A stretch of DNA of 64,000 bases, taken from a virus (lineage: Duplodnaviria > Caudoviricetes). A program made the position numbers and the translations under genes. This document shows, in pieces, positions 25,279 through 46,523 of this stretch. Every line of letters starts with the position of its first letter. Position 1 is the stretch's first letter. The notes under the pieces are model-generated. The model was not told the DNA's origin. It did no database searches and saw only the letters and a program-made list of their open reading frames with translations. Location of the stretch: the IMG/VR virus record IMGVR_UViG_3300014208_000002, positions 1-64,000 of that record. One strand, 5' to 3'.

Positions 25279-25284
25279 TTCCTT

Positions 25285-25292
25285 TACTAATA
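25285..25292 (+). promoter_or_regulatory. candidate late promoter TACTAATA
   Basis: Intergenic motif copy 14 nt before ATG 25307. Confidence 0.65.
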
Positions 25293-25306
25293 GACTGAGG
25301 TAAGAA

Positions 25307-27265
25307 ATGCCCGATATTAAAAACACTGGTGGAATAATACTTGAATGTTCTACAAATCCTCAAGCAGGAATGTTATCATATTGTAATGGTCAATATTTTG
25401 GATATGATGGTTCTACTTGTAATAACATAATAACCTGTAAAGATAATGCAACATGCGCCGCACCTGGAATAATACAAATTGGTGCAGGACTATGTTTAGA
25501 TGGGTGTACTGTCTGTCTTGGGCCAACAGGAATAGGGGCGATAACTTGTGATTGCCAAATATTGATTGGGTGTTCTACTACTTGCAATACTAATTCATGC
25601 TATACTATTTATTTGGGGACTAGCGCAGGAAATGGAGCTAGTTTATCTTCAAAGTCTATTTTTATAGGTAGTGGCTCTGGATGTGGAGCGTGCTGTTCAT
25701 GCTATTCAAATTTTATAGGAACAGAGACAGGGTGTGATTCTTTATGTTCTCTTTATTCTAATTTTATAGGATATCAAGCAGGATATCGAGCCTGTGGAGC
25801 AAGTTGTTCTAACTATATAGGTATATATGCGGGAACTGCTACTATAGCCTCTCCGTATGGAAATTATATAGGATATCAAGCAGGACAGAATGCTAATTGT
25901 TCTATCAATTCTAATCTTATAGGAAACGGGGCTGGGTATTCGGTGTGTTGTGTTCAAAGATCAAATATAATAGGATATCAAGCGGGCTATCAGGCTGTAT
26001 TTTCTTTATGCCCAGTTTTTATTGGCACTGGTGCTGGTGGTAATTCTTACTTTACTCATAATAGTATTTTTATAGGAACAGGTGCAGGACAAAATACTTG
26101 TTGTTCCTGTAGTAATGTTTTTTTAGGAAAATGTTCTGGAAGCGGAAATATAAAAGTTTCTTATTCTGTAATGATTGGAGATGCGGTTGGGTATCTGTCT
26201 TGCAATAGCTACAACCAAGTTTTTATTGGTTGTGAAGCAGGAAGAGCGGCTATTTGTTCTAATAACTCAATATTCATAGGGCAAAGAACAGGGTATGCCA
26301 CTTGCTTTAGTCCAAGCTCTGTTTTTATTGGTCTTGAGGCTGGAAATCTTGCTTCTGCTACGGACGGAGGAGTATTTATAGGAACAAGCGCAGGAGATAG
26401 TTCCTGTTATTCTTCTTATGGAGTGTTCTTAGGAAGATTAGCAGGATATAGGTCTTGTTATTCTATTAGCTCTATTATGATGGGAACACAAGCCGGATAT
26501 AATGCCAACTGTGTACGCTGGTCAAATATATTTGGAATTTATGCTGGACAAGATACTTGTAATGTTAGAGATTCAAATTTCATTGGAACGGAGGCTGGTT
26601 GTGGAGCAATTTGTTCAAGCTGTTCAACTTTTATAGGAAGAAGTGCTGGAAAAGGAAATTGTTGTTCTGATTTTTCAAACTTTATTGGCCTAGAGGCAGG
26701 TTATGAATCATGCTGTTCATCCTCTTCTAATTTCTTAGGTAGAGCCGCTGGAAAAAATGCCGCTTATTCTTGTAAGTCTAATTTTATTGGGTACTTTGCG
26801 GGTTATCAAGCTTGCTATTCTTATGATTCTAATTTCATAGGAAACTTCGCTGGGGTAGGGGCGGCTTGTTCTCGTAGCTCTCATTTCATGGGAGAAAATG
26901 CCGGTTATTATGCTTGCTATACTTGTTACTCAGTTTTTATTGGAACAAGTAGTGGTAGCTGTGCCTCTTGTTCTTGTCAATCAATTTTCTTTGGCCATAA
27001 TGCTGGACTAAATGCATGTTGTTCCTCTTGTTCAATTTTTATTGGAGTATGCACTGGTATCAATATTTGTTGCTCCCCCAATACTTTAATGATCGGAAAT
27101 AACACAGGAATTATTCCTCTCCTTTGTGGAAATATGGCAACATGCGCTAATTGCTCATGCTTAACAATAAATGGTCATGTAAGGGCAGTATGTACTTTCT
27201 GTGCGAATACTCTCATTCTGGGTTGTACAGCTTCAACGGTAGCTGGGGCTATATGGGTGGTTTAA
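25307..27265 (+). CDS. Cys-rich tail fibre-like protein with ~17-aa SxFIGxxAG beta-roll repeats
   Basis: About 30 repeats such as SNFIGYQAGYRACGASC; about 65 Cys in 652 aa by manual count. Confidence 0.75.
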   Translation: MPDIKNTGGIILECSTNPQAGMLSYCNGQYFGYDGSTCNNIITCKDNATCAAPGIIQIGAGLCLDGCTVCLGPTGIGAITCDCQILIGCSTTCNTNSCYTIYLGTSAGNGASLSSKSIFIGSGSGCGACCSCYSNFIGTETGCDSLCSLYSNFIGYQAGYRACGASCSNYIGIYAGTATIASPYGNYIGYQAGQNANCSINSNLIGNGAGYSVCCVQRSNIIGYQAGYQAVFSLCPVFIGTGAGGNSYFTHNSIFIGTGAGQNTCCSCSNVFLGKCSGSGNIKVSYSVMIGDAVGYLSCNSYNQVFIGCEAGRAAICSNNSIFIGQRTGYATCFSPSSVFIGLEAGNLASATDGGVFIGTSAGDSSCYSSYGVFLGRLAGYRSCYSISSIMMGTQAGYNANCVRWSNIFGIYAGQDTCNVRDSNFIGTEAGCGAICSSCSTFIGRSAGKGNCCSDFSNFIGLEAGYESCCSSSSNFLGRAAGKNAAYSCKSNFIGYFAGYQACYSYDSNFIGNFAGVGAACSRSSHFMGENAGYYACYTCYSVFIGTSSGSCASCSCQSIFFGHNAGLNACCSSCSIFIGVCTGINICCSPNTLMIGNNTGIIPLLCGNMATCANCSCLTINGHVRAVCTFCANTLILGCTASTVAGAIWVV

Positions 27266-27266
27266 T

Positions 27267-27866
27267 ATGGCGTTAATGTCAGAAAAACTTTATTATTATA
27301 AAGGCGCTACTCAATACTCATGTGATGTTTATTCTGATTTAGCGGACATTGGAAGCCCGGCTCATTATCTTAAAATATATACTGCTTCCGGGGATGGATA
27401 TATTCCCGTTAGTACAACTTCTGATAGTGATGATTCTGATTTAAGAACATATATTGCAGGGGCAGTTTATTATGTTAAAAAAACTTATACTCCTCCTATT
27501 GATATTGTCGCAGGAACACGAACTGAGACTGATTTAGGAGCGTTACTTGATGCTTATATATCCGATGGAACTACTAGAGGGTGTGAATCTTTTACATTAG
27601 ATAGTACTACTGATACAAATATAAAAATAAGAAATATAACAGTTATAGGTAAATCGGCTATTACTTCCAACCCAAATAGTATGGGATTATCTTATTCATA
27701 TTCCTTTACTGGTGAATTGTCAGTAAACGGTGGAGGAAGCTGGGCAAACGTAACAGCGTCAATAGGATTTATGCCCTACTCTATGAATGATGCAAACGCC
27801 GCTTCTATACACCCTAGTAGAACTGTTCCGCATTCATTTACAAATAGTGATATTGTATTTACATAG
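27267..27866 (+). CDS. putative fibre tip/adhesin protein, paralog A
   Basis: N-terminal ~70 aa (MALMSEKLYYYKG...LRTYIAGAVYYV) paralogous to 32589; C-terminus unrelated. Confidence 0.6.
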   Translation: MALMSEKLYYYKGATQYSCDVYSDLADIGSPAHYLKIYTASGDGYIPVSTTSDSDDSDLRTYIAGAVYYVKKTYTPPIDIVAGTRTETDLGALLDAYISDGTTRGCESFTLDSTTDTNIKIRNITVIGKSAITSNPNSMGLSYSYSFTGELSVNGGGSWANVTASIGFMPYSMNDANAASIHPSRTVPHSFTNSDIVFT

Positions 27867-27874
27867 GAGATTTC

Positions 27875-28087
27875 ATGTTATATTTTTATGATTATGATGT
27901 GGAAAAATTTCCAGAGGACGCAACAGAAATTATTGATGTAAGAAAATGGGATTATTGGACAATAACTCCAGGAATGGATATTCAATTATATGTTCATGAA
28001 AATCATATTACCAATTGGAAAGTAATTAGCAATAACCCTGAAAAATATACAACTTTAATAAGTAAAAATAGATTTGTAAAAATATAG
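27875..28087 (+). CDS. hypothetical protein
   Basis: 70-aa ORF with GGAG RBS. Confidence 0.6.
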   Translation: MLYFYDYDVEKFPEDATEIIDVRKWDYWTITPGMDIQLYVHENHITNWKVISNNPEKYTTLISKNRFVKI

Positions 28088-28093
28088 ATTTCT

Positions 28094-28101: not shown

Positions 28102-28117
28102 AGATAGAAGGTATTGG

Positions 28118-28732: not shown

Positions 28733-31700
28733 ATGGCATGGTATGATGGCTATGATGTATATGAGGATTTTGAAGACGCCACTTTAGCCTCTGGTTGGGC
28801 GGAAACTGATACCGGTGGAAATCTTACTATAAATTCTCCTACTCAATACTATGATGGTACTCACTCTCTTGAAATAAATCATACAAATAACACCGCTCAA
28901 TCTAATATAGAATATGATTTTGGTTATGGAACCCCTGTTGATAAAGTTGTTCTTTCTGGTAGGTTTAGACTCCCCTCTCCACAATCTGAATGGGATTATG
29001 GGGTCACAATATTTTATTTTTGGGATACTAGCTATTCCGGGGCTGTAGAACTTCATGCTTTCAGTACGGGCACGCCTACAATTGAAAGTGTTAATGCTAG
29101 TGATAGTTTTGTTTATACGCCGGATACTTGGTATGTTTTTCAAGTTTATTATAATCGTAATGGAGCTTCTTGGATAAAAATATGGAATGCTGACCATTCC
29201 TTATTATTAAAAACATTTACATGGGCGGCAAGTGATGTCCCTATTTACTTAGTCACTGTTGGAGGATATCATGATTGGACAGGACAGTATAGTTATTATG
29301 ACTCTTTAGCATTAGATGCCGGAGATATCCAATCAAGTATAAATCCTTGGGAAACTACTTCTTCTATAGACCTTTTTCAAATAAAAATGAGAAAAGGTCT
29401 ATCCTGTTTTACTGATGACTCATGTGGCATTCGTGATAGTATGTGTTGTTCTGGTTCAGCATTATCTATTGAAGGGGCTTGCTCTTCTCATGCTTATGTA
29501 ACTTTTGCGGATACTTGTACAAACGAAATTAAAGGATATATAAATCTTACTACAGGTGGATTAGTTACTCTTGGGAATATTTGTTCTTTAAATAAAATAA
29601 ATGCTACCGTCATAGAAGCTTCATGCTGTGTATGCTCTTCCTATATAAATGGATCATGCTGTATAACCTCTCCAATACTTTGTGGGCAATGTTGCGTAGT
29701 TACTCCATTATTTTCCTTGATTGGATTAGATAAAAATGGTTGTCCTTTCTGTTCTCAATCAAGTTGGAACCCTACTGAAGGAACAGTAGATATGACAGTG
29801 GATTGTGGAGTTACTATACAGTCTGGACAAGAACTACATTTTTATGGTAAAGCCCTGGAAAATATAAATAATGGTGAAGTAGTAATGTATGGTGGCCCCC
29901 AAGGTGACCATGTAACATTCTGTAAAAGTAATCTTTATGCTACTAATTTTAATCCTGGTTGGATTTTAGGAATTGCTACTCACAATATCTGTGCAAATGA
30001 ATATGGATATGTTACTTGGTATGGCAGAGTTCACGGTGTTTATACATACACTTGGCCGCAAGGAAGCCCACTATATATAAGTGAAACATGCGCTGGCTGT
30101 ATTAGATGCGGCCCACCATCAAGTCCTCATCCAAAATTTAGGTTGGGTATTGTAGAAAAAGAACAAGTAGGGGGGGCAGAAAATGGTGTTTATTATATTA
30201 AGCCACTTCAAAATAGAGCCTTAAATAGACTTGATGATGTTACACTTTGCAACTCTTGTGATTATCAAGTTTTAATGTTTCATGATGATACTTGTTGCAC
30301 TTGGTCAAATTGTTATATGAATCTATGTTGGGCAACAATTGGAGGAGCCACTACCTGTTGCCTTATCTGTGCGGCGGATTTTCAATCAGAACTTGGTGCC
30401 TCATTTAATTGTGTAAACGCCCTATTAAAAAATCCAACAGGTTTTGATAATCCAGCAAACGTAGTAGTTACTTATTGTAGTGACTGTAGACAGATTTATC
30501 TTTCAGGAAGCAACTATCAAGGTTATTGGAATGGTGCGCCTGTAGCCGGGTTAGCCCCTGGCTGGTGTTCATGTCAGCATGATACCCCAAAATGTTCTCC
30601 AATATATTTATATTATAATGGTAGCTTTTATGTTTGGTCAGATTCTTCTTGGTCTTTTGATATGCTTCAAATTGCTTCTGTAGGATTTGACTCATCTTGT
30701 GTTTTTAAATTTGCAGGGCGAGAACCCCATGGGTTTATGGATCATCTCGTTCACCAATCAGAGCATCAAACAATTGGTACATATTTAATGTCAGGAAATG
30801 TTTTCACTTCTTTAAGCTATGTTATAGGGTCTACTACGGCAACGGAAAGAAGACCACTTCTTGACGCAAATTATATTAAAGATGAAGATTTGATTACTTG
30901 TAATGCGGCCCTTACTACAAACGCTTATACTTGGGGTTGGCTTACTGGAGCGAGTAGTGAATTTACTTCTTCTGTAGACAATCCCGAAATTGTTTCAATC
31001 ACTGGTAGTCAACCTAATTGGAATCAGTATACAGGTGGAGCTTGGACACAAACGCCAATACCAGTAGGGTCATATATGACTATATGGGTTATTGCCGTTC
31101 CTACAACTAATGATACTGCTTCTCAAAAATATAGATATGTATTCTTACAAGGTCAATCAAATAGTAGTACTCTAACAATTGAAAGTTCTATTTCATTTAA
31201 TCAATTAAACCTTGGAACATTATCTGGACTTACTCCTGAAATGATTGCTATAGGTAGAATTATTATTCGATACATTGGTGGCAACTGGAGTATTTCTCAA
31301 GTAGACCGAATATCTGGTACACGCTTTACTCAAATAGCAAGTCCATCAGGAAATTTTCTTTCTGCGGTTACAACTGATTCAACTTTGGGGGGATCAGGTA
31401 CAGTTGCTAGTCCACTAACCGCTTGTCTTGCTACTTGTGATGCTCCTGGAATAGTAAGAATCGGAGAGGGATTAGGATTAAATGGATGTTGTATTTATAC
31501 TTGTTTAAAACCCACTGACTTCGCTACTTGTGATGTACCCGGTATTATTCAGGTAGGTGGGGGATTATGTATTACAAATTGTACCCTTAGTTTAAATCCT
31601 AACTGTGGTGGAACAGGTGGGGGAATAGGTTGTATAACAAGTGACTATCAAATACTTATTGGTTGTAATACTGCTTGTCAAGAATGTTCTGATTATTCAA

Positions 31701-32572
31701 ATTATTTTGGATTTTACGCTGGTGGTAGTTCCTGTTGTTCCCCTCTCTCCAATTTTATAGGATACTATGCTGGAGATGGGGCTAACAGTTCTTGTCATAC
31801 AAATTATATAGGTTTTTATTCGGGGCAAAGTGCAGTCTGTTCTGATTATTCAACTATAATAGGCTATTATGCTGGAAGATATGCTTCTTGTTCATCTTAT
31901 TCATTTTTTGTGGGGGTATGTTCAGGACATACTTCGTTCAATTCTCCTTATTCTAATATGATTGGTAATTCTGCTGGATATTGTTCGTGCTATTCATCAT
32001 ATTCTAATATGCTAGGGGCTAGTGCTGGATATAATTCTTGTTGTGTTTCTCATTCTGTTTTTATAGGAAGATCAGCGGGTGCTGTTTCCGATAACTCATG
32101 CTACGCAGTAATGATAGGTACTTGTGCTGGAAATGTATCAAGTAGTTCTTCTTATTCCACCTTTATTGGAACTTGTGCTGGTATTTGTACTATATGCGCC
32201 ATCAACTCTATTTTTATGGGATATGGTGCAGGATTTAATGCTGACTACTCTAATAATTCAATTTTTATAGGAAGAGCTACGGGTAATTATGCATGTTGTT
32301 CTTCTTGTTCTACTTATATAGGTTACTTTGCAGGAGTGTCGGCTTACTGTTCTTCATGTTCAATTTTCATTGGAGTGTGTACCGGATTTAATGTGTGTTC
32401 TTCCCCAAATACTTTAATGATCGGAAATAATACTGGCATAACCCCCCTTCTCTGCGGAATAATGGCTACTACTGCGGTGGCATCTAAACTTACTATAAAT
32501 GGTGCATTAGAACCAATTTATTTAATACTCCCTACTACTTGTGGTGGAGCGAATTCTATATGGCTAGTCTAA
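28733..32572 (+). CDS. mosaic Cys-rich tail fibre: N-terminal ConA/LamG-like domain, Cys-rich modules, C-terminal 17-aa repeats
   Basis: 1279 aa; first ~224 aa Cys-free and W/Y-rich; C-terminal ~370 aa paralogous to 25307..27265. Confidence 0.75.
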   Translation: MAWYDGYDVYEDFEDATLASGWAETDTGGNLTINSPTQYYDGTHSLEINHTNNTAQSNIEYDFGYGTPVDKVVLSGRFRLPSPQSEWDYGVTIFYFWDTSYSGAVELHAFSTGTPTIESVNASDSFVYTPDTWYVFQVYYNRNGASWIKIWNADHSLLLKTFTWAASDVPIYLVTVGGYHDWTGQYSYYDSLALDAGDIQSSINPWETTSSIDLFQIKMRKGLSCFTDDSCGIRDSMCCSGSALSIEGACSSHAYVTFADTCTNEIKGYINLTTGGLVTLGNICSLNKINATVIEASCCVCSSYINGSCCITSPILCGQCCVVTPLFSLIGLDKNGCPFCSQSSWNPTEGTVDMTVDCGVTIQSGQELHFYGKALENINNGEVVMYGGPQGDHVTFCKSNLYATNFNPGWILGIATHNICANEYGYVTWYGRVHGVYTYTWPQGSPLYISETCAGCIRCGPPSSPHPKFRLGIVEKEQVGGAENGVYYIKPLQNRALNRLDDVTLCNSCDYQVLMFHDDTCCTWSNCYMNLCWATIGGATTCCLICAADFQSELGASFNCVNALLKNPTGFDNPANVVVTYCSDCRQIYLSGSNYQGYWNGAPVAGLAPGWCSCQHDTPKCSPIYLYYNGSFYVWSDSSWSFDMLQIASVGFDSSCVFKFAGREPHGFMDHLVHQSEHQTIGTYLMSGNVFTSLSYVIGSTTATERRPLLDANYIKDEDLITCNAALTTNAYTWGWLTGASSEFTSSVDNPEIVSITGSQPNWNQYTGGAWTQTPIPVGSYMTIWVIAVPTTNDTASQKYRYVFLQGQSNSSTLTIESSISFNQLNLGTLSGLTPEMIAIGRIIIRYIGGNWSISQVDRISGTRFTQIASPSGNFLSAVTTDSTLGGSGTVASPLTACLATCDAPGIVRIGEGLGLNGCCIYTCLKPTDFATCDVPGIIQVGGGLCITNCTLSLNPNCGGTGGGIGCITSDYQILIGCNTACQECSDYSNYFGFYAGGSSCCSPLSNFIGYYAGDGANSSCHTNYIGFYSGQSAVCSDYSTIIGYYAGRYASCSSYSFFVGVCSGHTSFNSPYSNMIGNSAGYCSCYSSYSNMLGASAGYNSCCVSHSVFIGRSAGAVSDNSCYAVMIGTCAGNVSSSSSYSTFIGTCAGICTICAINSIFMGYGAGFNADYSNNSIFIGRATGNYACCSSCSTYIGYFAGVSAYCSSCSIFIGVCTGFNVCSSPNTLMIGNNTGITPLLCGIMATTAVASKLTINGALEPIYLILPTTCGGANSIWLV

Positions 32573-32588
32573 AAAGGAGAACAGATAA

Positions 32589-33221
32589 ATGGCTTTAGCG
32601 GCAGAAAAATTATGTTATAATCGTGGTGGAACAAACTACGCTATAAATACCTATACTGCTTTTGCCGATGTTCAGTGTGCTATAAAAGCTTTGTGTTTAA
32701 AAAATGCAAGTGGTGATTTTAGATATACTCCTATTGGTATTACTACTGACCCAAGAGCCGGATATCTTAGAGTAGGGATAGGAAGTACAGCTTATGCAGT
32801 AGAAAATACAGCAACTATTTCTTGGGCACGACAACTAATAAATTGTTCAATTCCTTCTTATAATAATACTTCACAGCCTATTGCAAGAATGTATTGTAGC
32901 TCTGTTACTAATCCTGTTGTTAGTTATTTTATTATAGATTTTTCCGCAGGATATAATATAAGATTTGATTGGAATGTTACTATTTCTTCTTCCCCCCAAG
33001 CGGCACGGTTTTATGTAGTAGACCCAATCGATTCAGTTATAATAGATACTGGGTGGAAAACTTCAACCTCTGGTGGGGCCAGCTTTACAAATGATTGTAC
33101 TGACTCCATTACTCAATGCTATAGGATTTGTGTTTTAACTTGTAGATATAGCACCACAGATGGATATACTACTTGGTATTGGCACCCAGCTTTTAATTTT
33201 CAAGTTTATACTCATGGATAA
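32589..33221 (+). CDS. putative fibre tip/adhesin protein, paralog B
   Basis: MALAAEKLCYNRGG...LRVGIGSTAYAV aligns with the N-terminus of 27267. Confidence 0.6.
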   Translation: MALAAEKLCYNRGGTNYAINTYTAFADVQCAIKALCLKNASGDFRYTPIGITTDPRAGYLRVGIGSTAYAVENTATISWARQLINCSIPSYNNTSQPIARMYCSSVTNPVVSYFIIDFSAGYNIRFDWNVTISSSPQAARFYVVDPIDSVIIDTGWKTSTSGGASFTNDCTDSITQCYRICVLTCRYSTTDGYTTWYWHPAFNFQVYTHG

Positions 33222-33912: not shown

Positions 33913-34803
33913 GTGTTAGCTCTACATACCTTTGATACTTTATCCACAACTGGATTGAAGTTTACTGGCTTAAAAAAAGCTGATACTGTTACCATGATTT
34001 TATCGGCGCTCCAATGGCGAAAAATTAACGGGGATATTAAACTCTATTGTGATAAGATATTTTATTCGTGGTTAGATGAAATTGGCTTTACAGATATATA
34101 TTCAGAAATTGATAAAGAACTTTTAGATAAATCCCGTGATCCAAATATAAATATAAGTAAGCAATATGGTTTTTGGGCATCTTCTAAATTCTATGCAATG
34201 AAAGAACAAATATATCCCTTTTTTATGCTTGATATGGATTTGATTGTAAATCTTAATCTAAAATATTATACTGAACAGGATTTTGGTTTAATAGCTTTTG
34301 GACAAGAGCGAATTAGTAATTCTTGGAGAGATATTCCAGTATATCCCCCAAAAGAAAATATATGGACGCCAGACGGATATGTTTTTGATGAGAGATTAGA
34401 TTGGGAAACTCCTCCAGTAAATTGTGCGCTTACTTATTTTGAAGATTTGGAATTAAAAGATGAATATATAAATGAAGCGTTTAGATTTATGAAAAATAAT
34501 ACCCTCCCTGATTATTCTAATAATAGCAAATTTCCTCCAATGATGATGTGTTATATTGAACAGAGATTTTTACCTATGTTAGCTAAACTTCGTGGTGTAA
34601 AATATAGTACATTTCTTTCAGGATATCTTGGTGGAACTTCAGTAGAAGCTTTAAGCAGTACTCGCTTTTTTCATTTATGGTGTGCCAAACATATTCCTAC
34701 TCTTAGAATAAGAATGTATAAATCATTGATAAAGGATTTAGAAAAGCGATATCCAATATTTTACAATAGGTATCTACAAATTGAAAACAAACTTCAAGAT
34801 TGA
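33913..34803 (+). CDS. putative GT-A-fold glycosyltransferase-like protein (DUF6734-like)
   Basis: LSALQWRK...IKLYCD, FWASSKFY, MLDMDL (DxD), YIEQRFL, FFHLW; GTG start. Confidence 0.6.
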   Translation: MLALHTFDTLSTTGLKFTGLKKADTVTMILSALQWRKINGDIKLYCDKIFYSWLDEIGFTDIYSEIDKELLDKSRDPNINISKQYGFWASSKFYAMKEQIYPFFMLDMDLIVNLNLKYYTEQDFGLIAFGQERISNSWRDIPVYPPKENIWTPDGYVFDERLDWETPPVNCALTYFEDLELKDEYINEAFRFMKNNTLPDYSNNSKFPPMMMCYIEQRFLPMLAKLRGVKYSTFLSGYLGGTSVEALSSTRFFHLWCAKHIPTLRIRMYKSLIKDLEKRYPIFYNRYLQIENKLQD

Positions 34804-35704
34804 AAAAACTGGAATATCTGGCATCGCTCGATTACGAAATGAGGAAGAATATCTCCCTATTATTCTTGATAGATTCCTTCCATTCTTAGATGAAATTATT
34901 CTTGTTTGTGATAAAGGCAATACAGATAATACTCCTGATATTTGTGAAGACTATAGAAGGCGTTATCCAGACATAATTAAAACCTATTATTATCCTTATG
35001 AGGTATATCCTCCATTGTCCAAAGAAACTTTATTTTGTAAAGAAGCTGATCCAAGAGCTTTATGGAACTATAATAATTGGGCATTTAGTAAAGCTACTCG
35101 GTCATTCTCTATGAAGGTAGATGGCGACTTAATCCCTCGGGCTGATCTAATGAATTATAAAGACCTTATTTGGGATATAGTGAAAAAAAGTTATATTGTA
35201 GAATTACACGGTGCAAATTTAATTATTGATAATGATAAATTAAAAGTTTTTTCTCCTCCTGAATCTAACATTATTCTTTGTGGAATGAATGACCATTTTT
35301 TAAGACATAATGATATTTCTAATTTCTTTGGTAGACAAAAATCAAGCTCATGTGAAGTGTGGTGTGTTCCTTATCTTCCAAAAAAGTTTAATAAAGGATT
35401 CCCCTATTTCTTTTTTTATTATCATATGCGTTGGTGCAAAAAGGATATTTGCTCTAATCGAGGCAATATGGGAATTTCTAATTCTTATTATGACCATTAT
35501 GCTTATTATAAAGATTCATTAAAAATAGATGTGCCTGAAGCAAAAATAGATTGGGAAAGCTGGATTATCAGCTATAAAAATATTGTTGATACATACCGAG
35601 AAAACTACTATAATATAGATATAGGTATTCCTGATCCAAATATAGATACTGAGCTAATTAAATATATGAAGGATAAAAATCTATATAATGAAGCCAAATT
35701 ATAG
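34781..35704 (+). CDS. glycosyltransferase, GT2-like / Campylobacter CgtA-like, paralog 1
   Basis: ISGIARLRNEEEYL...TDNT...YPYEV...LWNYNNW...KVDGD. Confidence 0.75.
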   Translation: MKTNFKIEKTGISGIARLRNEEEYLPIILDRFLPFLDEIILVCDKGNTDNTPDICEDYRRRYPDIIKTYYYPYEVYPPLSKETLFCKEADPRALWNYNNWAFSKATRSFSMKVDGDLIPRADLMNYKDLIWDIVKKSYIVELHGANLIIDNDKLKVFSPPESNIILCGMNDHFLRHNDISNFFGRQKSSSCEVWCVPYLPKKFNKGFPYFFFYYHMRWCKKDICSNRGNMGISNSYYDHYAYYKDSLKIDVPEAKIDWESWIISYKNIVDTYRENYYNIDIGIPDPNIDTELIKYMKDKNLYNEAKL

Positions 35705-36581
35705 TATAGAACATCAGGGTATTTCAGGGATCGCTCGACTACGAAATGAAGAGGACTTTCTTCCTATAGTCTTAGAAAGGTTTCTCCCCTTTCTTGATGA
35801 AATTATTTTAGTTTATGACGCCGGAAGTATTGATAAGACAAAAGAAATATGCGAGGATTTCCAAAGAAAAAACCCTCATAAGGTAAAAGTTTACAATTAT
35901 CCCTATAGGGTATATCCTGCTAACTCAAGAGAACTTCTTGTTTGTGAAGAAAATGATCCTTGCGCTCTTTGGAATTATTATAATTGGTCATTTAGCAAGT
36001 CTACTTGTTCTCATTCAATGAAAATAGATGGTGATCTTGTTCCTAGAAAAGACTTGCTGAATTATAAAGAATTGATTTGGGAAGAACTAAATAATTCAAA
36101 ACCATTTATTGAAGTGCATGGGGCCAATCTATTTATTCAGGACAATGAATTAAAAGTATTTACAACAGAGCATGATTTTACTGTTTGTACTGGATTAGAG
36201 GATCATTTCATACGAAAAAATGATGTGGCAAATTTATTCTATCGAAAGAAAGATGAGCCTTGGGAAAAATGGTTTTATCCTAAATTTATTGGCTTATGTA
36301 TTCCCTCCACTTTTTTCTACTATCACATGAGGGGGTGTAAACAAAACAAGTTCATAAACTGGGGTTATGCACCAATAATGGCAGAATATAATACTTATAA
36401 AGAATTTTCTAAAATTGGAAGACCTGAGTATAATAAAGACTGGGTTAATTGGGAAAAATCCTATCGTCAATTTATTAAAAAGCATCATCGACTAGATAAC
36501 TATATTGAATTGGGACTTCCGAATCCTAATGAAGATAAAGAGTTTATTGAATATTTAAAAAAGTGGGGTTTTCTAAAATGA
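35688..36581 (+). CDS. glycosyltransferase, GT2-like / CgtA-like, paralog 2
   Basis: Tandem paralog of 34781 (ISGIARLRNEEDFL, LWNYYNW, KIDGD, FFYYHMR). Confidence 0.75.
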   Translation: MKPNYSIEHQGISGIARLRNEEDFLPIVLERFLPFLDEIILVYDAGSIDKTKEICEDFQRKNPHKVKVYNYPYRVYPANSRELLVCEENDPCALWNYYNWSFSKSTCSHSMKIDGDLVPRKDLLNYKELIWEELNNSKPFIEVHGANLFIQDNELKVFTTEHDFTVCTGLEDHFIRKNDVANLFYRKKDEPWEKWFYPKFIGLCIPSTFFYYHMRGCKQNKFINWGYAPIMAEYNTYKEFSKIGRPEYNKDWVNWEKSYRQFIKKHHRLDNYIELGLPNPNEDKEFIEYLKKWGFLK

Positions 36582-37399
36582 TGATTGAAATAACCACAAA
36601 TATATTAGATTGCGGCTGTATTATGAACTGTCTATTCTGCCCTCAGCCTACATTATTGAAAAATTATAAAAGTAATATACGAATGTTATCTTTCAATGAC
36701 TATAAAAAAGCAATAGATAAAATTCCTTCTAATATTGAAATTCGCTTTGCTGGATTTTCTGAACCCTGGCTTAATAAAAAAACTACAGATATGATTTTAT
36801 ATGCCCATGAAAAAGGACATAAGATTTATATTTTTACTACAGGGGTAGGACTATCAGCTGAGGCGTTTAAGCGAATAGAACATATAACCTTTGAAATGTT
36901 TGTTTTACACTTACCAGATAAGCAACAAAACGCCCATCATAATATTACTCCTGAATATATTGAAACAATTAAGTATCTAAAAGAAAATGTAAAAGTTTGT
37001 AGAAGCAGTACATGGACAAAAAGAAATCTTACTTTAGATACTATGCACATGGGGGTATTACATGATTCTGTAAAAGATATTTTTCCCGACTCTTTAAATT
37101 ATCAAATGTCCCCTCGGGCATATAACTTAAAAAACGAATATAATATAAAGCCGGAATTAAAAAAGAAGTTTCTCAGAGAAATAAATCATGGAGAAGGTAA
37201 TTATACTTGTAATTTTCCAGAAGGATTTCATAGAAATGTCATGCTCCCAAACGGGGATATGTATCTTTGCTGTATGGACTATGGGCTTGAACATAAATTA
37301 GGAAATATATTTGAAGAGGATTATTTAATTATAATAAATCGAACTAATAAAACCGACTGGCATCTCTGTCAATTTTGTGAGTGGGCTTGTAGGGTATAA
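36578..37399 (+). CDS. radical SAM protein with SPASM/twitch domain
   Basis: CIMNCLFC (CxxxCxxC), FAGFSEP, C-terminal C...PNGDMYLCCMD...LGNI...CQFC; ATG 36578 preferred over 36563. Confidence 0.85.
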   Translation: MMIEITTNILDCGCIMNCLFCPQPTLLKNYKSNIRMLSFNDYKKAIDKIPSNIEIRFAGFSEPWLNKKTTDMILYAHEKGHKIYIFTTGVGLSAEAFKRIEHITFEMFVLHLPDKQQNAHHNITPEYIETIKYLKENVKVCRSSTWTKRNLTLDTMHMGVLHDSVKDIFPDSLNYQMSPRAYNLKNEYNIKPELKKKFLREINHGEGNYTCNFPEGFHRNVMLPNGDMYLCCMDYGLEHKLGNIFEEDYLIIINRTNKTDWHLCQFCEWACRV

Positions 37400-37407
37400 A
37401 ATAAAGC

Positions 37408-37415
37408 TACTAACA
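37408..37415 (+). promoter_or_regulatory. candidate late promoter variant (C)TACTAACA
   Basis: Intergenic, upstream of ATG 37449. Confidence 0.55.
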
Positions 37416-37448
37416 TAAAACTAATAGAATATAAGGGAGAAATAAAAT

Positions 37449-38948
37449 ATGGACTACTATTTTAATAATTTATTTGGTGACGGGATTGGCTGGAACTTTG
37501 GCGTATCTACTTGGATTAAGAACACAAAAAAAGCATTAGAGTCTTTTGGTCTTAAAAATAAAATAGATGCAAAGTTAGCACTTTCTATTGGACTCCCCCG
37601 AGCGTTTAACCCAATACCTTCCCGATTTAATGTTTTCATGACCCTCTTTGAAACAGAGGATTTATTTGATGATGACTATGAAAAGTTAAATAAAGCCGAT
37701 GTAATTATTGTTCCTTGTCAAGCTAACCAAAAAGTATTAGAAAGAAACTTGAGAAAAGACATTCCCGTTTATGTAGCTATTGGGGGATTTGATCCTAAAA
37801 TCTTCAAATATAAAAAGAGAGAGAAAATTGACAAAGAGTTTATTTTCCTCTATGTCGGTGCGCTCAATCCCCGAAAGGGTTTTGACTTGGCGATTAAGGC
37901 GTTTAATAAATCAAAAGGATTATATCCTAAAGCAAAACTTTATATCAAGACGACTGAGGAAGGTAAAGATGGATTTGAATATAATTCCTTTGGAGATATT
38001 ATTTATGATTATCGAATACTCTCTACCAAAGAATTAGTGGATATTTACTATAAATCCCATTGTCTACTCCTCCCAAGCCACGGTGAAGGAATTGGTCTTA
38101 CTGCATTAGAAGCCGCCGCCACAGGTCTTCCTGTTATTCATACTGCATATGGTGGTACAGCAGAGTTTTTAGGTTTTCAAAATTCTCTTCCATTAAAATA
38201 TAGTCTTGAAGTAACTGAACTAACTTACCCCGGAGAACCAAAAAGAGTAAGAGCAACTAAGTGGGCAGAAGTCCACATTGATGAACTTATTTCTAAAATG
38301 GATTATGTATATGATAGATATGCACAAATAATTAAAGACTCTAAACCTTATTTATTAAATAATATAAAGCAATTCTCTTGGAAAAATTACGGAAAGAATC
38401 TTATTGCTATATTCAATAAATATAAAGAGGATATAGAACGAGCCATCCTCAAAAAAATACTTAATCTTGGTTGTGGAAATAGAAAATATCCAGGAACAGT
38501 CGGAGTGGATATTCGTAAAGATGTTGGCGCAGATATTGTATGGGACTTATCTAAGACTCCTTATAAGTTTGCTAAGGATGAATCATTTGATGAAGTAATT
38601 ATAATAAATACTCTTGAACACTTACTTGATCCCCTTCCCTTCATGAAAGAGGCTTATAGGATTTTGAAAACTGATGGACTACTTCATATACAGGTTCCTT
38701 ACTGGCGTTCAGAAAACTTTTTTATTGATCCAACTCATCATCATGCGTATCATGAACTGTCTATGGATTTTTTTGATCGGACTACTTTTCACGGAGGACT
38801 AAATAATTATATTCCCGTTAATTTCCGTATACTAAATAGACAGGTACTAGAGACTGGAGACATTTATTTTATTCTTCAAAAGAAATGTTATAATGATTTA
38901 GGAACTTGTGCTTGTTTAAATGGGGGTGGCTGTGACTGCAAAAAATAA
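37449..38948 (+). CDS. GT4-family glycosyltransferase fused to a class I SAM methyltransferase domain
   Basis: FLYVGALNPRKGFDL, PSHGEGIGLTALEAAATGLPVI; then ILNLGCG, GVDI, NTLEHL, GLLHIQVPY. Confidence 0.85.
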   Translation: MDYYFNNLFGDGIGWNFGVSTWIKNTKKALESFGLKNKIDAKLALSIGLPRAFNPIPSRFNVFMTLFETEDLFDDDYEKLNKADVIIVPCQANQKVLERNLRKDIPVYVAIGGFDPKIFKYKKREKIDKEFIFLYVGALNPRKGFDLAIKAFNKSKGLYPKAKLYIKTTEEGKDGFEYNSFGDIIYDYRILSTKELVDIYYKSHCLLLPSHGEGIGLTALEAAATGLPVIHTAYGGTAEFLGFQNSLPLKYSLEVTELTYPGEPKRVRATKWAEVHIDELISKMDYVYDRYAQIIKDSKPYLLNNIKQFSWKNYGKNLIAIFNKYKEDIERAILKKILNLGCGNRKYPGTVGVDIRKDVGADIVWDLSKTPYKFAKDESFDEVIIINTLEHLLDPLPFMKEAYRILKTDGLLHIQVPYWRSENFFIDPTHHHAYHELSMDFFDRTTFHGGLNNYIPVNFRILNRQVLETGDIYFILQKKCYNDLGTCACLNGGGCDCKK

Positions 38949-40917
38949 TCGTGCTTTTATCACGGGAATTTCAGGACAGGACGGAAGTTATCTAGCTGAA
39001 CTTCTTTTATCTAAAGGGTATGAAGTAGCTGGGTTTATTCGTCGAAGCTCTAATCCCAACACTGCCTCTCGTATATCTCATCTAATAAATAAGATAAAAT
39101 TATATCAAGGTGATCTACTAGATATGAATTCTTTATCTATTGCAATAAGGGATTTTCAACCAACAGAAATTTATAATCTTGCGGCACAGAGCTTTGTAGG
39201 TATGAGTTGGGAACAGCCTTTTTACACCTCTGAAGTAAATGCACTTGGGGCATTAAATATTCTTTCTGTAATAAAAGATGTAAATAAAAATATTCGATTT
39301 TACCAAGCGAGTACATCTGAATTATTTGGAAAGACAACCTCTTCTATACAAGATGAGTTTACACCTTTTACTCCACGAAGTCCTTATGGTATTGCAAAAC
39401 TATTTGCTCATTGGACAACAGTAAACTATCGAGAGTCTTATGGTATGTATGCTTGTAGTGGAATATTATTTAATCATGAAAGCCCTAGAAGAGGTTTAGA
39501 GTTTATTACTAAGAAAATAACAAACCATATTCAAGAGTTTGGAAATTCAAAACCTTTACTGATTGGTAATATGTCCGCTCGACGAGATTGGGGTTATGCA
39601 AAAGAATATTGTATAAATACAGATGTTCCTATTTTAACTCTTTCTGGATGGAAATATTGTGATGAAGTAAAAGAGGGAGATAGTATAATTAACTTTGACC
39701 CCATAAATAATAATTTATCTACTGATATAATAAATAAAATAATAGTAAAAGAGGATGAAAGAAATAGAATACATTTAAGTGGAAGGTCTTTTGATCTTAC
39801 TTGTACGCCTGAACATAGAATTTATTATCAAAAAAAGAGTAAAAATAGCAAGGGCGGCTGGTCAGATTGGAAAGTTATATCTGCTCAAGATTTCGCTGGT
39901 ATGTTACAAGATAAGGTAACTCGAACAAAATATGATTATAGATTACCTCACTTTCAAGATTATAATGCTAAGGAAAATAATAAATGGTCTGATGAAGAAA
40001 TTTATCTTTTAGGGGCTTTATTAGCAGAAGGGTGTATTTCAGAAAAAAATAGAATAACATCTGTTTCTATTTCTCAATCTTTTATTAAAAATGAACCTAC
40101 TCATAAAAAGATAAAGGATTGCCTAGATAGATTATGTTTAATTTATCATACTAGGAATACTAACTCTGGTGTTACAGAGTGGGTGTTAACCTCAGAGTCT
40201 AGTAAAAAAATATTAGAATTATTTGATTCTAATGATATTCATATAGCCCCTAACTGGATATATAGTTTATCAAGCAGACAAGCAAATATTTTATTTAATT
40301 CTTTAATGGACTGTGATGGACATTGGGGAAGCCTAACTTATATTTCCAAACGATACCAATTGGCAGTAGCGTTTCAAACTATTGCTATATTGGCTGGATA
40401 TGCTTCAACAAAGATACATCAGAGGAAGTGTGGTGTTTATAGTTCTACAGTAATATCAAAAAGAAAAAAATATCAGTATATTACTGACATAGAACTTATA
40501 GAACCAGTAACACCTACAGTTTGGTGTGTAAATACTAACAATGGAACAATTATATCCAGGGATAATGACAAAATTTCTATTTCTGGTAATTGTGAAGCCA
40601 TGTGGTTAATGCTTCAACAGGACAAGCCGAATGATTTTGTTATTGCTACAGGAGAAACGCATACAGTAAAAGAGTTTATTATTCAAGCATATAAATACAT
40701 AGGGGCTGAAATTATATTTGAAGGGCAAGGGTTAGATGAAATTGGGATAGATAATAATTCTCAAAGAACTCTTGTTAAAATTGATCCTCAATTCTATCGG
40801 CCCGCAGAGGTAGATTATCTTAGAGGAGATTCTTCTAAAGCCAAGAAGATACTTAATTGGGAACCAAAAGTAAAATTTGAACAGCTTGTAGAAATTATGA
40901 TGGAGGACGAAGCATAA
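38920..40917 (+). CDS. gmd: GDP-mannose 4,6-dehydratase interrupted by an intein
   Basis: AFITGISGQDGSYLAE, YNLAAQSFV, FYQASTSELFG, PRSPYGIAKL, FNHESPRRG, RDWGYAKEY...EAMWLMLQQDKP. Confidence 0.95.
   Translation: MGVAVTAKNNRAFITGISGQDGSYLAELLLSKGYEVAGFIRRSSNPNTASRISHLINKIKLYQGDLLDMNSLSIAIRDFQPTEIYNLAAQSFVGMSWEQPFYTSEVNALGALNILSVIKDVNKNIRFYQASTSELFGKTTSSIQDEFTPFTPRSPYGIAKLFAHWTTVNYRESYGMYACSGILFNHESPRRGLEFITKKITNHIQEFGNSKPLLIGNMSARRDWGYAKEYCINTDVPILTLSGWKYCDEVKEGDSIINFDPINNNLSTDIINKIIVKEDERNRIHLSGRSFDLTCTPEHRIYYQKKSKNSKGGWSDWKVISAQDFAGMLQDKVTRTKYDYRLPHFQDYNAKENNKWSDEEIYLLGALLAEGCISEKNRITSVSISQSFIKNEPTHKKIKDCLDRLCLIYHTRNTNSGVTEWVLTSESSKKILELFDSNDIHIAPNWIYSLSSRQANILFNSLMDCDGHWGSLTYISKRYQLAVAFQTIAILAGYASTKIHQRKCGVYSSTVISKRKKYQYITDIELIEPVTPTVWCVNTNNGTIISRDNDKISISGNCEAMWLMLQQDKPNDFVIATGETHTVKEFIIQAYKYIGAEIIFEGQGLDEIGIDNNSQRTLVKIDPQFYRPAEVDYLRGDSSKAKKILNWEPKVKFEQLVEIMMEDEA
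39610..40590 (+). mobile_element. 327-aa intein with LAGLIDADG homing endonuclease in gmd
   Basis: Starts CINTDVPIL, block B TCTPEHRIY, LGALLAEG and SLMDCDG motifs, ends VWCVNT...ISGN followed by +1 Cys; removal restores AKEY-CEAMWLM. Confidence 0.9.
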
Positions 40918-40918
40918 T

Positions 40919-41344
40919 ATGATAAAAGTAGCAATATCAGGTGGATTTGATCCCCTTCATGTAGGGCATATTAAATATATTCAAAATGCAATAGCCCTTG
41001 GCGATCATTTAATTGTTATTCTGAATGGTGATTCTTTTCTTATGCGAAAGAAAGGATTTATTTTCATGCCCGCAGAGGAACGAGTAGAGATTATTCGAGC
41101 AATTAGGGGAGTAGATGAGGTATGTTTATTTAATTCAGAAAAAGATGATGTTTGTGATGCTTTAGCAATGTTCAAACCCAATATTTTTGCAAAGGGTGGG
41201 GATCGTACTGGACCAGAGAATATTCCTGAATGGGATTTTTGTCAAAAAAATCATATTGATGTTGTAGTAGGAGTTGGAGGAGGAAAAATTCAGTCCTCTC
41301 AATGGCTTACTAAGAGTATTGAATTAAAGGAGAAAAATAAATGA
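40919..41344 (+). CDS. cytidylyltransferase-like nucleotidyltransferase (HxGH family)
   Basis: SGGFDPLHVGH, LNGD, ERVEII, FAKGGDR. Confidence 0.85.
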   Translation: MIKVAISGGFDPLHVGHIKYIQNAIALGDHLIVILNGDSFLMRKKGFIFMPAEERVEIIRAIRGVDEVCLFNSEKDDVCDALAMFKPNIFAKGGDRTGPENIPEWDFCQKNHIDVVVGVGGGKIQSSQWLTKSIELKEKNK

Positions 41345-41685
41345 TTTATTCTTCCGGGGATTTATTTGATAAATGCACAATTCTTGATATTAAGCTACGC
41401 AAGGGGCTTCATGTAGAGAATGAGTTTCAAGTGGTTTATAACGAAGTAAAAGAATTATTAAAAAAATATCCAAAGACAAAGGCTATTTACAAGAAACTTT
41501 TTGAATCCAATCTTGAACAGTATGATTTGGAGGATTTAATACGAACTGAGAAAGACCTTGCTGTAGTTGGAAATATTGCTCTTAATATTCGTAGTCATAA
41601 TGATGCAAGAGTGCTATTAAAAAATAAGATAAATGAAATTACACAGGAAGCTTTTAAGGAAGTTAAAGATTATAAGAGAAGTTAG
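41341..41685 (+). CDS. conserved phage protein (DUF6165-like)
   Basis: SSGDLFDKCTILDIK...N...DLED.IR...NDARVLLKNKIN. Confidence 0.6.
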   Translation: MIYSSGDLFDKCTILDIKLRKGLHVENEFQVVYNEVKELLKKYPKTKAIYKKLFESNLEQYDLEDLIRTEKDLAVVGNIALNIRSHNDARVLLKNKINEITQEAFKEVKDYKRS

Positions 41686-41688
41686 GTC

Positions 41689-41696
41689 TACTAACA
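41689..41696 (+). promoter_or_regulatory. candidate late promoter variant (C)TACTAACA
   Basis: Intergenic, upstream of ATG 41726. Confidence 0.55.
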
Positions 41697-41725
41697 TAAC
41701 GAATCAAATATAAGGAGATTTTTAT

Positions 41726-42643
41726 ATGGCAAGTAATACAACGGTCGTCCTCAGCGGGGGAATTGGAAAATGTGTAGCGTTCACAGCGGCAATCCCAAAG
41801 ATGGTAAAGAAATATGGTCCTATCACAATTATGTCCCCTTGGCCCGATTTGTTTACAGACCTTGAAGGTGTGTATCGTTCTATTAGTTTCGGCGTGGAAT
41901 ATGGCTACGAGTACTTTCAAGGAAAGAATCGCCTTTCACCCGAACCCTACAACCGCAATGACTTTTTTCAAAAGAAGATTCATTTGATTGACGGCTTCAT
42001 GAAAGAGTGCGGATTAGAAGAAAACTATGATTCATTAACTGATCTTCCTCTTGCCCCGTCCTTTCTTGATATAAATTCAAAGAATAAAATTGATGCTATT
42101 CGCCAAAATGGAAAGTATATCGTAGTACAGTTTATGGGTGGAAATCAGGCTCAAAATGGTAAGATGAATGATAAGTTTATGGCAAAGGATTACCCTCCTC
42201 AGCTTATTGAAAATTTGATTATTGCTATTGGAAAGAAATATGGTAGTAAAATCCAGATTGTCAATTATGGGCTTCCTTTTGAATTTAATATTGCAAATAC
42301 CATTTCTGCGGCAGACTTGCCCTATACTGCGGCGGCTTATTTATTGAAGAACTCTGAAACTTTTATTGCAATAGACTCTAATCTTCAGCATTTCTCTGCT
42401 TGCAAAGGAGTAGAGAAGAAGGGCATAGTCCTTTGGGCGGCAACGGACCCAATAAACTTTGGATATCCTCATAATATAAACCTCTCGGCAGAGTGCCCAT
42501 ATAATGACCTTCATTGCAACAGACCCTATTTTCAGCATACCTCTGATATAGTTGGTAAGGGCATTCCTTGGTCTTGTAAGACAAAAGATTGTCTAAATAT
42601 TTCCCCAGAGAAAGTTCTCTCCGAATTAGAAAAGATTATTTAA
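41726..42643 (+). CDS. GT9-like (heptosyltransferase-like) glycosyltransferase
   Basis: SGGIGKCVAFTAAIP; IAIDSNLQHFSA...GIVLWAATDP..FGYPHN. Confidence 0.7.
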   Translation: MASNTTVVLSGGIGKCVAFTAAIPKMVKKYGPITIMSPWPDLFTDLEGVYRSISFGVEYGYEYFQGKNRLSPEPYNRNDFFQKKIHLIDGFMKECGLEENYDSLTDLPLAPSFLDINSKNKIDAIRQNGKYIVVQFMGGNQAQNGKMNDKFMAKDYPPQLIENLIIAIGKKYGSKIQIVNYGLPFEFNIANTISAADLPYTAAAYLLKNSETFIAIDSNLQHFSACKGVEKKGIVLWAATDPINFGYPHNINLSAECPYNDLHCNRPYFQHTSDIVGKGIPWSCKTKDCLNISPEKVLSELEKII

Positions 42644-45425: not shown

Positions 45426-46523
45426 ATGAGTGGTTTTACTAATAATGGTATAGCAATTGAATCTTGCATCTGTCTCGCTCCTTCTGTTTTTTCATCTTGT
45501 CAGATTAGATTTTGTCAATTAGGTGTTGACTTAGGAAGACAATTTGTTTTAACCAATACTGCTCCTTATATAGGGCATCGTCCTAGTTTTCAAGCTAATT
45601 TAGGTTTTACCTCTTGTGGTGTAGCCGGAGGAGATTTAGGGTGGTGTGTTTCACATTGGCAAAGATCAGTTACTACAGGTGTCTCTTTAAGTAGATATAA
45701 AGAATATTCTACGCCTATGAATATTCAATACTCGTGTGACCTCTATGGATGTAGGTCTGTAGTAACAGTAGTTCTTATTGGCGGCGGCGGGGGTGGTGGA
45801 GGCGGTAAACAGACTTTATCAGATGACGGCGGCGGGGGCGGGGGTGGTGGAGGAACTACAGTTATAGCTCAATCTGTTTTTATTCCTAATTTGAGTATAA
45901 TATGTGTAGGTGCTGGTGGGGCGAGAGGGCTTGTAGGCTATAATGGTAGTAATGGTAGTAGTTCTTATATTCAGAATATAAGCTATGATTTATCAGGAAT
46001 TGGTTGTAGCGGTGGATATTATTATAATTTTTGTGTAGTAGCTCCCGGTGGTAGAGGTGGGGGTGTAGGAGGAGATGCGGGAAGTTGTCCTGGAAATGGG
46101 GGAGGAGCAGGAATTGTATCAGTAACTAATGGAGCTTGCTTTGCTGGAGCAACAGGTTGGACAAGTGGAGGAGCAGGAGGAGCGGGGACTAAAGAGAGTA
46201 GTCCCTCTCATCCTAATTCTTGTGGAATGCAAACGGGGCCTAGTATAACATTAGTAGACTACTACGGCAATAGTATAAGTACTTCTGCTAACTCCGGGAG
46301 AGCATTATTTGAAATAAGCGAAGCTGGAAATGGAGGACCGGGGGGGTCATCTACTTTCTGTAAGGGAGGAAGAGAGGGCTATAACTACGCAGGAGTACCA
46401 GCGGTAAATGGTAGTCCAGGGTGTTTTGGTTCGGGTGGTGGAGGAGGACATGGTGATTGGAATGAAGGAGAGTCTTCTAATGGTGGCAATGGTGGGGATG
46501 GTTATATAATTATTTATTGGTAA
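45426..46523 (+). CDS. glycine-rich fibre tip/adhesin (T2 gp38-like arrangement)
   Basis: VVLIGGGGGGGGG, VGAGGARG, GSGGGGG, GGNGGDGYIIIYW; directly after the S74 fibre. Confidence 0.7.
   Translation: MSGFTNNGIAIESCICLAPSVFSSCQIRFCQLGVDLGRQFVLTNTAPYIGHRPSFQANLGFTSCGVAGGDLGWCVSHWQRSVTTGVSLSRYKEYSTPMNIQYSCDLYGCRSVVTVVLIGGGGGGGGGKQTLSDDGGGGGGGGGTTVIAQSVFIPNLSIICVGAGGARGLVGYNGSNGSSSYIQNISYDLSGIGCSGGYYYNFCVVAPGGRGGGVGGDAGSCPGNGGGAGIVSVTNGACFAGATGWTSGGAGGAGTKESSPSHPNSCGMQTGPSITLVDYYGNSISTSANSGRALFEISEAGNGGPGGSSTFCKGGREGYNYAGVPAVNGSPGCFGSGGGGGHGDWNEGESSNGGNGGDGYIIIYW

Follow-up and report, generated by a model that had tools for sequence, protein, structure and literature searches.

Why would a phage build a tail fibre in which one residue in ten is cysteine? 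The question is raised by fibre 1, a protein encoded in a 64,000-nucleotide stretch of viral DNA (hereafter, the window), which forms the first 64 kb of the complete 200,726-bp genome of a Caudoviricetes phage with direct terminal repeats (IMG/VR record IMGVR_UViG_3300014208_000002). The source habitat is groundwater, sampled in two studies. Host range depends on the tail fibres of a phage, which have to last outside the cell and, with few exceptions, are poor in cysteine. Fibre 1, its repeat array and its paralog, fibre 2, are located as follows.

25307..27265, plus strand: cysteine-rich fibre 1 (652 residues, 65 cysteines), with an N-terminal part, 29 beta-roll coils and a C-terminal cap
25610..27088, plus strand: the 29 gap-free 17-residue coils of fibre 1 (residues 102-594)
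28733..32572, plus strand: cysteine-rich fibre 2, a paralog (1279 residues, 77 cysteines), with the same 17-residue coils and the same C-terminal cap

Cysteines concentrate at two positions of a 17-residue repeat

A sequence-only reading of the window had counted about 65 cysteines in 652 residues at this gene, and its coordinates, length and count are all correct. Cysteine makes up 10.0% of fibre 1 (65/652) and, on average, 1.5% of the open reading frames (ORFs) of at least 120 residues across the whole genome; at that genomic frequency, the probability of 65 or more cysteines in fibre 1 is 2 × 10−32. Thirteen of them fall in residues 1-101, 45 in the repeat units and 7 in the C-terminal 58 residues, a short cap that is also present in fibre 2. 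Near the N-terminus we found the cysteine-substituted form of a familiar fibre motif that the same reading had pointed out (N-A-T-C-A-A-P-G-I-I-Q-I-G-A-G-L-C-L-D-G). The opposite strand of 25307-27265 holds no ORF of 80 residues or more. The adjacent large fibre-like protein of the same phage, encoded at 21913, has only 5 cysteines in 1121 residues (0.4%).

The repeat proved stricter than the roughly 30 units of 17 residues, with cysteine at the turn, that had been proposed: 29 consecutive coils, each of exactly 17 residues, follow one another with zero insertions or deletions and share the consensus F-I-G-x-x-A-G-x-x-A-C-C-S-x-x-S-N. Gly3 and Gly7 are invariant, while Ala6, Ala10, Ser16 and Asn17 are dominant. 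Positions 11 or 12 hold 29 of the 45 in-unit cysteines (P = 1 × 10−16 for 2 of 17 positions), and a cysteine occurs at one or the other in 22 of the 29 coils, in runs of up to 7 consecutive coils. Paired Cys-Cys turns lie on adjacent coils at residues 442/459 and 561/578. Second cysteine sites (positions 8, 14 and 15) are irregular, and many coils have one cysteine only. Where position 12 is not cysteine, its codons (TAT, TTT and AAT) differ from TGT by one or two bases.

A rare variant of a common, cysteine-poor scaffold

Homology searches with fibre 1 at E ≤ 0.001 returned 474 matches (word-indexed) and 5076 matches (exhaustive). The best homologs (E = 1 × 10−76 to 1 × 10−110), many with a Peptidase_S74 chaperone and many without one, bear out the assignment to a tail-fibre repeat scaffold. 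Its nearest known family is that of the S74-chaperone fibres with the F-I-G-x-x-A-G repeat (PTL_trimer/Peptidase_S74; thousands of metagenomic members), which have the same repeat length, register, consensus and predicted solenoid, with homology reaching E = 1 × 10−110. Unlike such relatives, which have a median of 0.33% cysteine and Thr-Asn at positions 11-12, fibre 1 has 10% cysteine, and neither fibre 1 nor fibre 2 has S74: we found no Peptidase_S74 Pfam domain in the proteins at 25307 or 28733, although one is present in the protein encoded at 42720.

To compare cysteine content, we used the 235 best homologs from both searches, excluding the paralog from the same genome. Their cysteine content (median 0.33%, maximum 3.1%) agrees with the expectation of cysteine-poor relatives, and cysteine content is lineage-specific rather than equal in all members. 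Alignment of 1808 in-register 17-mers from homologs gave the consensus F-[ILF]-G-x-x-A-G-x-x-A-T-N-A-x-x-S-N, so that in this phage Thr11 and Asn12 are replaced by Cys and Ala13 by Ser; the suggestion that cysteine stands where Ser, Thr or Asn is usual thus finds its match in the Thr-Asn of the homologs. Homologs accept Thr, Ser, Ile, Asn, Tyr and Asp at position 11 and Asn, Ser, Gly, Asp, Tyr and Glu at position 12, and these two positions are flanked by conserved small residues, Ala10 and Ala13.

Fibre 1 is also rare. Its own paralog aside, nothing comparable appears among the 150 best matches listed from 1.84 billion representative proteins. We found no close relative of fibre 1 in viral contigs and no DNA match among deposited phages; the protein matches were all distant (27-37% identity). 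Fibres 1 and 2 match no family in Pfam or PHROGs, the Pfam copy used has no model for the 17-residue repeat, and sequence searches of solved structures gave no match with either the single protein or a repeat profile. A full-text literature search returned nothing on cysteine-rich beta-roll fibres or on fibres modified by radical SAM enzymes. One moderately cysteine-enriched homolog (P0058) has only a 2-oxoglutarate (2OG)-Fe(II) oxygenase upstream, after which its contig ends; the phage genome encodes no oxygenase of that kind. Two further homologs of this sort (P0027 and P0219) sit on contigs that are too short to show their gene context. The cysteine-laddered fibre is a rare variant of the known S74-type fibre scaffold.

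The enrichment is genuine

Contigs from a second, independent groundwater study, from a different year, match 25307-32572 with no differing base. These contigs are short and of low depth, and they cover 28 of 30 bins of this interval. None of the datasets listed as holding the sequence is an RNA dataset. Because the identical sequence recurs in the second study, an assembly or base-calling artefact is ruled out. The reading frame of fibre 1 is fixed by homology (E = 1 × 10−76 and better). One of the low-depth second-study contigs joins 25772 to 26770, skipping 997 bases within the repeat array; the junction has only 21 bases on one side, and a repeat-induced assembly slip is probable, a real deletion not.

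Recent amplification of the repeat can be rejected. The repeat units have a mean pairwise nucleotide identity of 51% (maximum 69%), synonymous codons are mixed among them (GGA, GGT, GGG and GGC for Gly; TGT and TGC for Cys), and Tandem Repeats Finder detected no 51-nt array in the repeat region. The units are old, and the cysteines were therefore kept or gained unit by unit and not copied by recent amplification. A diversity-generating retroelement was likewise rejected, since the complete genome has no match to RVT_1 (reverse transcriptase) and 25000-33300 contains no near-identical pair of template and variable repeats. The cysteine enrichment of the phage fibres is genuine and selected.

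Predicted fold and stacking of the coils

We modelled fibre 1 with AlphaFold2 from a 47-sequence alignment (mean predicted local distance difference test score, pLDDT, 74). In the model, a single chain winds into a solenoid, each unit making one coil, and pLDDT is > 90 over most of residues 380-590. DSSP assigns a strand to positions 17-1-2 and an isolated bridge to position 11 of successive coils; because these bridges recur from coil to coil, the residues at position 11 are predicted to stack, as the sequence-only reading had imagined for a cysteine ladder in a beta-roll.

Structure comparison with VIA-align 2 retrieved autotransporter and phage beta-helices (Z = 14-20), among them Vag8 (Z = 20.4), phage Andhra, pertactin and the heptosylated TibA (4q1q, Z = 14.4). 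Structural neighbours in the ESM Atlas were S74/PTL_trimer phage proteins and YadA-head adhesins (template modelling, TM, scores 0.66-0.76), and Foldseek with fibre 1 against PDB returned nothing below E = 0.001. The predicted fold is thus a beta-roll like that of YadA heads, as is typical of S74-type phage fibres. Like the YadA-type head (a left-handed parallel beta-roll) of trimeric autotransporter adhesins, to which its TM scores are 0.70-0.76, fibre 1 has one coil per short repeat rich in Gly, Ala, Ser and Asn and belongs to an adhesive fibre; it differs in that it lacks a membrane anchor and its sequence matches no solved chain. YadA repeats have 14 residues.

Positions 11-12 probably form a solvent-exposed two-residue turn, since homologs tolerate varied residues there, between Ala10 and Ala13. 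A homotrimeric state of the fibres is suggested only by analogy with relatives that carry the S74 trimerisation chaperone. We also considered a beta-helix braced by disulfides within each coil, as in insect antifreeze proteins, and rejected it; that type has two fixed cysteines per coil, whereas fibre 1 has 45 in 29 coils, irregularly placed, with many one-cysteine coils.

A paralogous fibre and a duplicated cassette

In fibre 2, residues 1-200 have no cysteine, and residues 200-700 and 900-1279 are rich in it. Its coils carry cysteine at the same repeat positions as those of fibre 1. Scattered sites in the two paralogs would have spoken against the sequence-only reading; instead, 11/26 and 14/30 cysteine sites are common to both, where 2-3 would be expected (4-5 times above expectation). 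In the globular middle of fibre 2, none of the cysteines recurs in homologs that are 46-47% identical, and the residues aligned with its non-repeat cysteines are, in decreasing order, Thr, Ala and then Ser, Asn, Val or Asp.

Each fibre gene is followed by a small gene.

27267..27866, plus strand: 199-residue protein directly behind fibre 1 (2 cysteines)
32589..33221, plus strand: 210-residue paralog of the 27267 protein, behind fibre 2 (9 cysteines)

The N-termini of the two small proteins are paralogous (38% identity over 76 residues), so the duplication took in a whole cassette, fibre gene and small gene together. The product of the 27267 gene is probably an accessory or assembly protein of this cassette. 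Between the two cassettes, a 183-residue protein (28118-28669) contains the stretch G-G-A-D-F-A-E-G-F, which is reminiscent of the autoproteolytic chaperone domains of some tailspikes; it has no match in Pfam or PHROGs.

A second cysteine-enriched lineage

A second lineage of 17-mer fibres (hereafter, lineage B; loci L004, L018, L019, L089, L090 and L092) is also enriched, with 4.5-5.3% cysteine. Its members are T4-like phages, with genes for a neck protein and gp15 in the vicinity, and one comes from a sample run labelled freshwater metagenome. Lineage B fibres keep an N-T-T-G turn and carry cysteine at variable positions 9, 4/5 and 14/15. The enrichment is thus convergent in two lineages on one scaffold, at different, probably exposed, positions, which suggests selection for surface thiols and not for one particular structural pair.

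The convergence bears on a reading without any thiol-specific role, in which cysteine is a tolerated stand-in for Ser, Thr or Ala in a reducing habitat and has accumulated on fast-evolving receptor-binding surfaces by diversifying selection or drift. The replaced residues are indeed small (Thr, Ala, Ser, Asn and Val), cysteine sites turn over between the paralogs through single-base neighbours (Tyr TAT, Ser TCT/AGT), and enrichment lies in distal domains and not in N-terminal anchor parts. We nevertheless find this reading distinctly improbable: a 30-fold excess over the 235 homologs, focused on two of 17 positions, is hard to obtain undirected, cysteine has been maintained across old and diverged units, the enrichment recurs convergently in another lineage, and the neighbouring fibre at 21913 has remained at 0.4%.

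A row of thiols in place of the Thr-Asn turn that most relatives' coils have, with a comparable enrichment in a second lineage, points to an unrecognised tuning of fibre chemistry, for which stiffness locked by redox state, bridging by metals and an unusual modification are candidate modes. The gap-free solenoid, with its 17-residue coils and a thiol ridge that could be programmed, may also interest protein engineers.

Possible oxidation of a thiol ridge

We favour a reading in which an exposed thiol ridge oxidises outside the cell, possibly bridging metals, and staples the fibre, although we would give it somewhat less than an even chance. In this reading, the fibres are late structural proteins with a YadA-head-like beta-roll of one coil per 17 residues. 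Selection has placed cysteine on the two-residue turn (positions 11-12) where relatives have Thr-Asn and, in the distal domains of the fibres, at further sites usually occupied by small residues, creating a ridge of thiols along the fibre with a spacing of one coil (about 4.8 Å). The thiols would remain free while the fibre folds in the reducing cytoplasm; once the cell has lysed, those that are neighbours would oxidise to inter-coil or inter-chain disulfides, and metal ions may bridge some of them. A fibre stapled in this way would be stiffer and would better resist unfolding and proteolysis.

We prefer stapling because position 11 is predicted to stack, cysteine-bearing coils run up to seven in a row, lineage B includes a freshwater phage and a precedent exists. 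Pam3, a cyanophage of fresh water, attaches its fibres to the baseplate through disulfides, and the fibres come off in dithiothreitol (PMC9942802). Pam3 resembles the case proposed here as a freshwater phage with cysteine in the tail apparatus and a redox-sensitive fibre; it differs in having few specific cysteines at the joint between fibre and baseplate (PMC9942802), where fibre 1 has a ladder along the shaft.

Several observations weigh against stapling. Only about half of the cysteine sites are common to the paralogs, the rest swapping with Tyr, Ser and Asn, and such turnover is unlike obligatory or fixed structural disulfide pairs. Where a coil with one cysteine adjoins a coil with none, as happens several times, a thiol would be left without a partner. 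Oxidation may never occur in groundwater, which is often anoxic, and a disulfide that joins in-register neighbours in a parallel stack is under strain. The phage genome encodes no DsbA or glutaredoxin; a search for Erv1/ALR sulfhydryl oxidases gave no match in it, nor in the control genomes, and so carries no information. It does encode one thiol-redox protein.

106917-107207 of the genome, minus strand: thioredoxin (Pfam E = 5 × 10−23), between tRNA genes of the tRNA cluster

Phage thioredoxins usually serve ribonucleotide reductase, and this gene therefore lends stapling weak support.

Reduced thiolates could instead form a metal- or mineral-binding ridge that, in anoxic groundwater, coordinates Fe, Zn, Cu, Ni or metal-sulfide surfaces; such a ridge would stabilise the fibre or aid adsorption to a metal-coated host surface. 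The groundwater habitat in two studies is consistent with this, as are the Cys-Cys turns at 442/459 and 561/578, each of which would put four thiols in the span of a single coil step. Metal ladders are known in fibres, as in gp37 of T4, whose His-x-His motifs bind iron. We consider the idea unlikely for fibre 1, in which none of the motifs CC, CxC and CxxC exceeds its shuffled expectation, as would be looked for in a metallothionein-like protein, His is at 0.6% and acidic residues are sparse; the second cysteine-enriched lineage, moreover, includes a sample labelled freshwater metagenome.

The glycan island and the radical SAM enzyme

The fibre module continues downstream of the second cassette with the following features.

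33913..42643, plus strand: glycan-building island between fibre 2 and fibre 3
36563-37399, within the island: radical SAM/SPASM enzyme
42720..45425, plus strand: fibre 3 with a C-terminal S74 chaperone (901 residues, 31 cysteines, 3.4%, mostly in residues 350-800)
45426..46523, plus strand: glycine-rich protein resembling a fibre-tip or assembly protein (365 residues, 16 cysteines, 4.4%)

The island encodes DUF6734, two GT2-like proteins, the radical SAM/SPASM enzyme, a fusion of GT4 and a methyltransferase, sugar-nucleotide genes (GDP-mannose 4,6-dehydratase and a sugar-phosphate nucleotidyltransferase) and a weak GT9-like protein whose match is below the Pfam cut-off (E = 0.0065). Its position inside the fibre module raises the possibility that the cysteines are acceptors, modified by island enzymes to S-linked heptose or hexose or to a radical-SAM thioether. 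In favour of such a modification, homologs of this radical SAM were found next to three 17-mer fibres (L004, L018 and L019), all of them cysteine-rich (4.9-5.3%), the predicted fold resembles that of the heptosylated autotransporter TibA, and lineage B fibres are followed by sulfotransferase and carbamoyltransferase genes. We nonetheless hold it to be quite unlikely, for reasons that concern both the radical SAM enzyme and the glycosyltransferases.

The enzyme at 36563-37399 is the only radical SAM in the genome and belongs to a short radical SAM/SPASM family found in at least 436 viral contigs. Its best scores are for TIGR04317 and TIGR04321, though far short of either cut-off, and the CXXX maturase model TIGR04115 gives no match. 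In the loci inspected, its family lies in tail or fibre modules, beside glycosyltransferases, FkbM methyltransferases, sugar-nucleotide enzymes or 2OG-Fe(II) oxygenases, with structural neighbours that are mostly cysteine-free or with sugar genes, and some members are fused to FkbM-type methyltransferases, which points to glycan chemistry. Within the stretches fetched, 78 of the 80 viral loci that encode the enzyme show no 17-mer fibre. L004, L018 and L019, whose radical SAM proteins are 66-70% identical and whose fibres are 36-54% identical, form one lineage and therefore count as one event. Two nearly complete lineage relatives (149 kb, 87%; 156 kb, 90%) have 4.5%-cysteine fibres with 41 coils and no homolog of the radical SAM anywhere in their records.

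With cysteine-rich fibres that lack the enzyme and enzyme loci that mostly lack cysteine, we rejected the radical SAM as a general cysteine maturase. It more likely acts on the glycan, the pattern of co-occurrence suggesting that cysteine enrichment is independent of the enzyme, and a radical SAM gene near a cysteine-rich fibre need not be its maturase. The radical SAM of L018 and L019 forms the C-terminal portion of a longer open frame (710-947 residues).

Known CXXX-repeat systems targeted by radical SAM enzymes (TIGR04114/TIGR04115) offer a partial parallel, in that cysteine-rich fibre proteins and a radical SAM/SPASM gene occur together in a tail module. They differ in having cysteine at every fourth residue, where fibre 1 has a period of 17; CxxxC is not enriched in fibre 1 (7 versus 6.4 in shuffles), and the radical SAM of the phage does not match TIGR04115 and belongs to a family that travels with sugar genes and cysteine-free neighbours.

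Minus-strand ORFs with 8-17% cysteine in five radical SAM loci (L028, L029, L044, L046 and L059) overlap giant plus-strand genes. We dismissed these apparent cysteine-rich ORFs as antisense artefacts of Thr/Ala-rich genes, because ACA and GCA codons appear as TGT and TGC on the opposite strand; they are a trap for composition-based screens.

Turning to the glycosyltransferases, the two GT2-like proteins gave only weak matches among solved chains, to the flagellin glycosyltransferase GmaR and to an unnamed glycosyltransferase; no S-glycosyltransferase (SunS/ThuS-like) was among the solved-chain matches, and sequence alone cannot tell acceptor specificity. One parallel is that of TibA/AIDA-I with TibC/AAH, in which, as here, a beta-helix repeat adhesin (4q1q, Z = 14.4) has a glycosyltransferase and a sugar-nucleotide enzyme nearby; there, however, the acceptors are Ser and not Cys, and the GT9-like match in the phage lies below the Pfam cut-off. 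The repeats of these heptosylated autotransporters have 19 residues.

A narrower version, in which sugars made by the island are attached to the exposed cysteine ridge so that the fibres carry S-linked glycans, seems to us very unlikely. To our knowledge, S-linked glycans occur so far only on small bacteriocins. If it were true, this would be the first S-glycosylated virion protein, and cysteine would have been chosen over Thr or Asn because thioglycosides resist glycosidases.

Decoding of TGY codons

The phage genome has 20 tRNA genes, one of which carries the anticodon for TGY codons.

109363-109447 of the genome (outside the window), minus strand: tRNA with anticodon GCA (ARAGORN), 85 nt with a 4-bp extra arm

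This tRNA has an A1-U72 acceptor end and the discriminator U73, and its architecture, with a class II-like variable arm, is unusual for a cysteine tRNA. In bacteria, a tRNA is marked for serine chiefly by a long variable arm. If the tRNA were charged with serine, decoding would be ambiguous and many TGY codons in the fibres would be read as Ser, which is the second commonest residue at homolog positions 11 and 12. This strikes us as extremely improbable. U73 and the GCA anticodon are both identity elements of cysteinyl-tRNA synthetase (in E. coli), TGY codons in the same gene block encode the eight invariant cysteines of the radical SAM family, including those of CX3CX2C, and the cysteine-rich lineage B phage G002 has five tRNAs, none of them for cysteine codons. 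Wholesale reassignment of these codons was rejected on the same invariant radical SAM cysteines.

Other features of the window

Cysteine enrichment is moderate in fibre 3 and in the glycine-rich protein encoded at 45426. The sequence of fibre 3 ends in I-S-C-L-E-N-K, just as the sequence-only reading had described. Far upstream of the fibres, amid head genes, the window also contains a gene resembling a GIY-YIG/NUMOD3 homing endonuclease (2402-3178).

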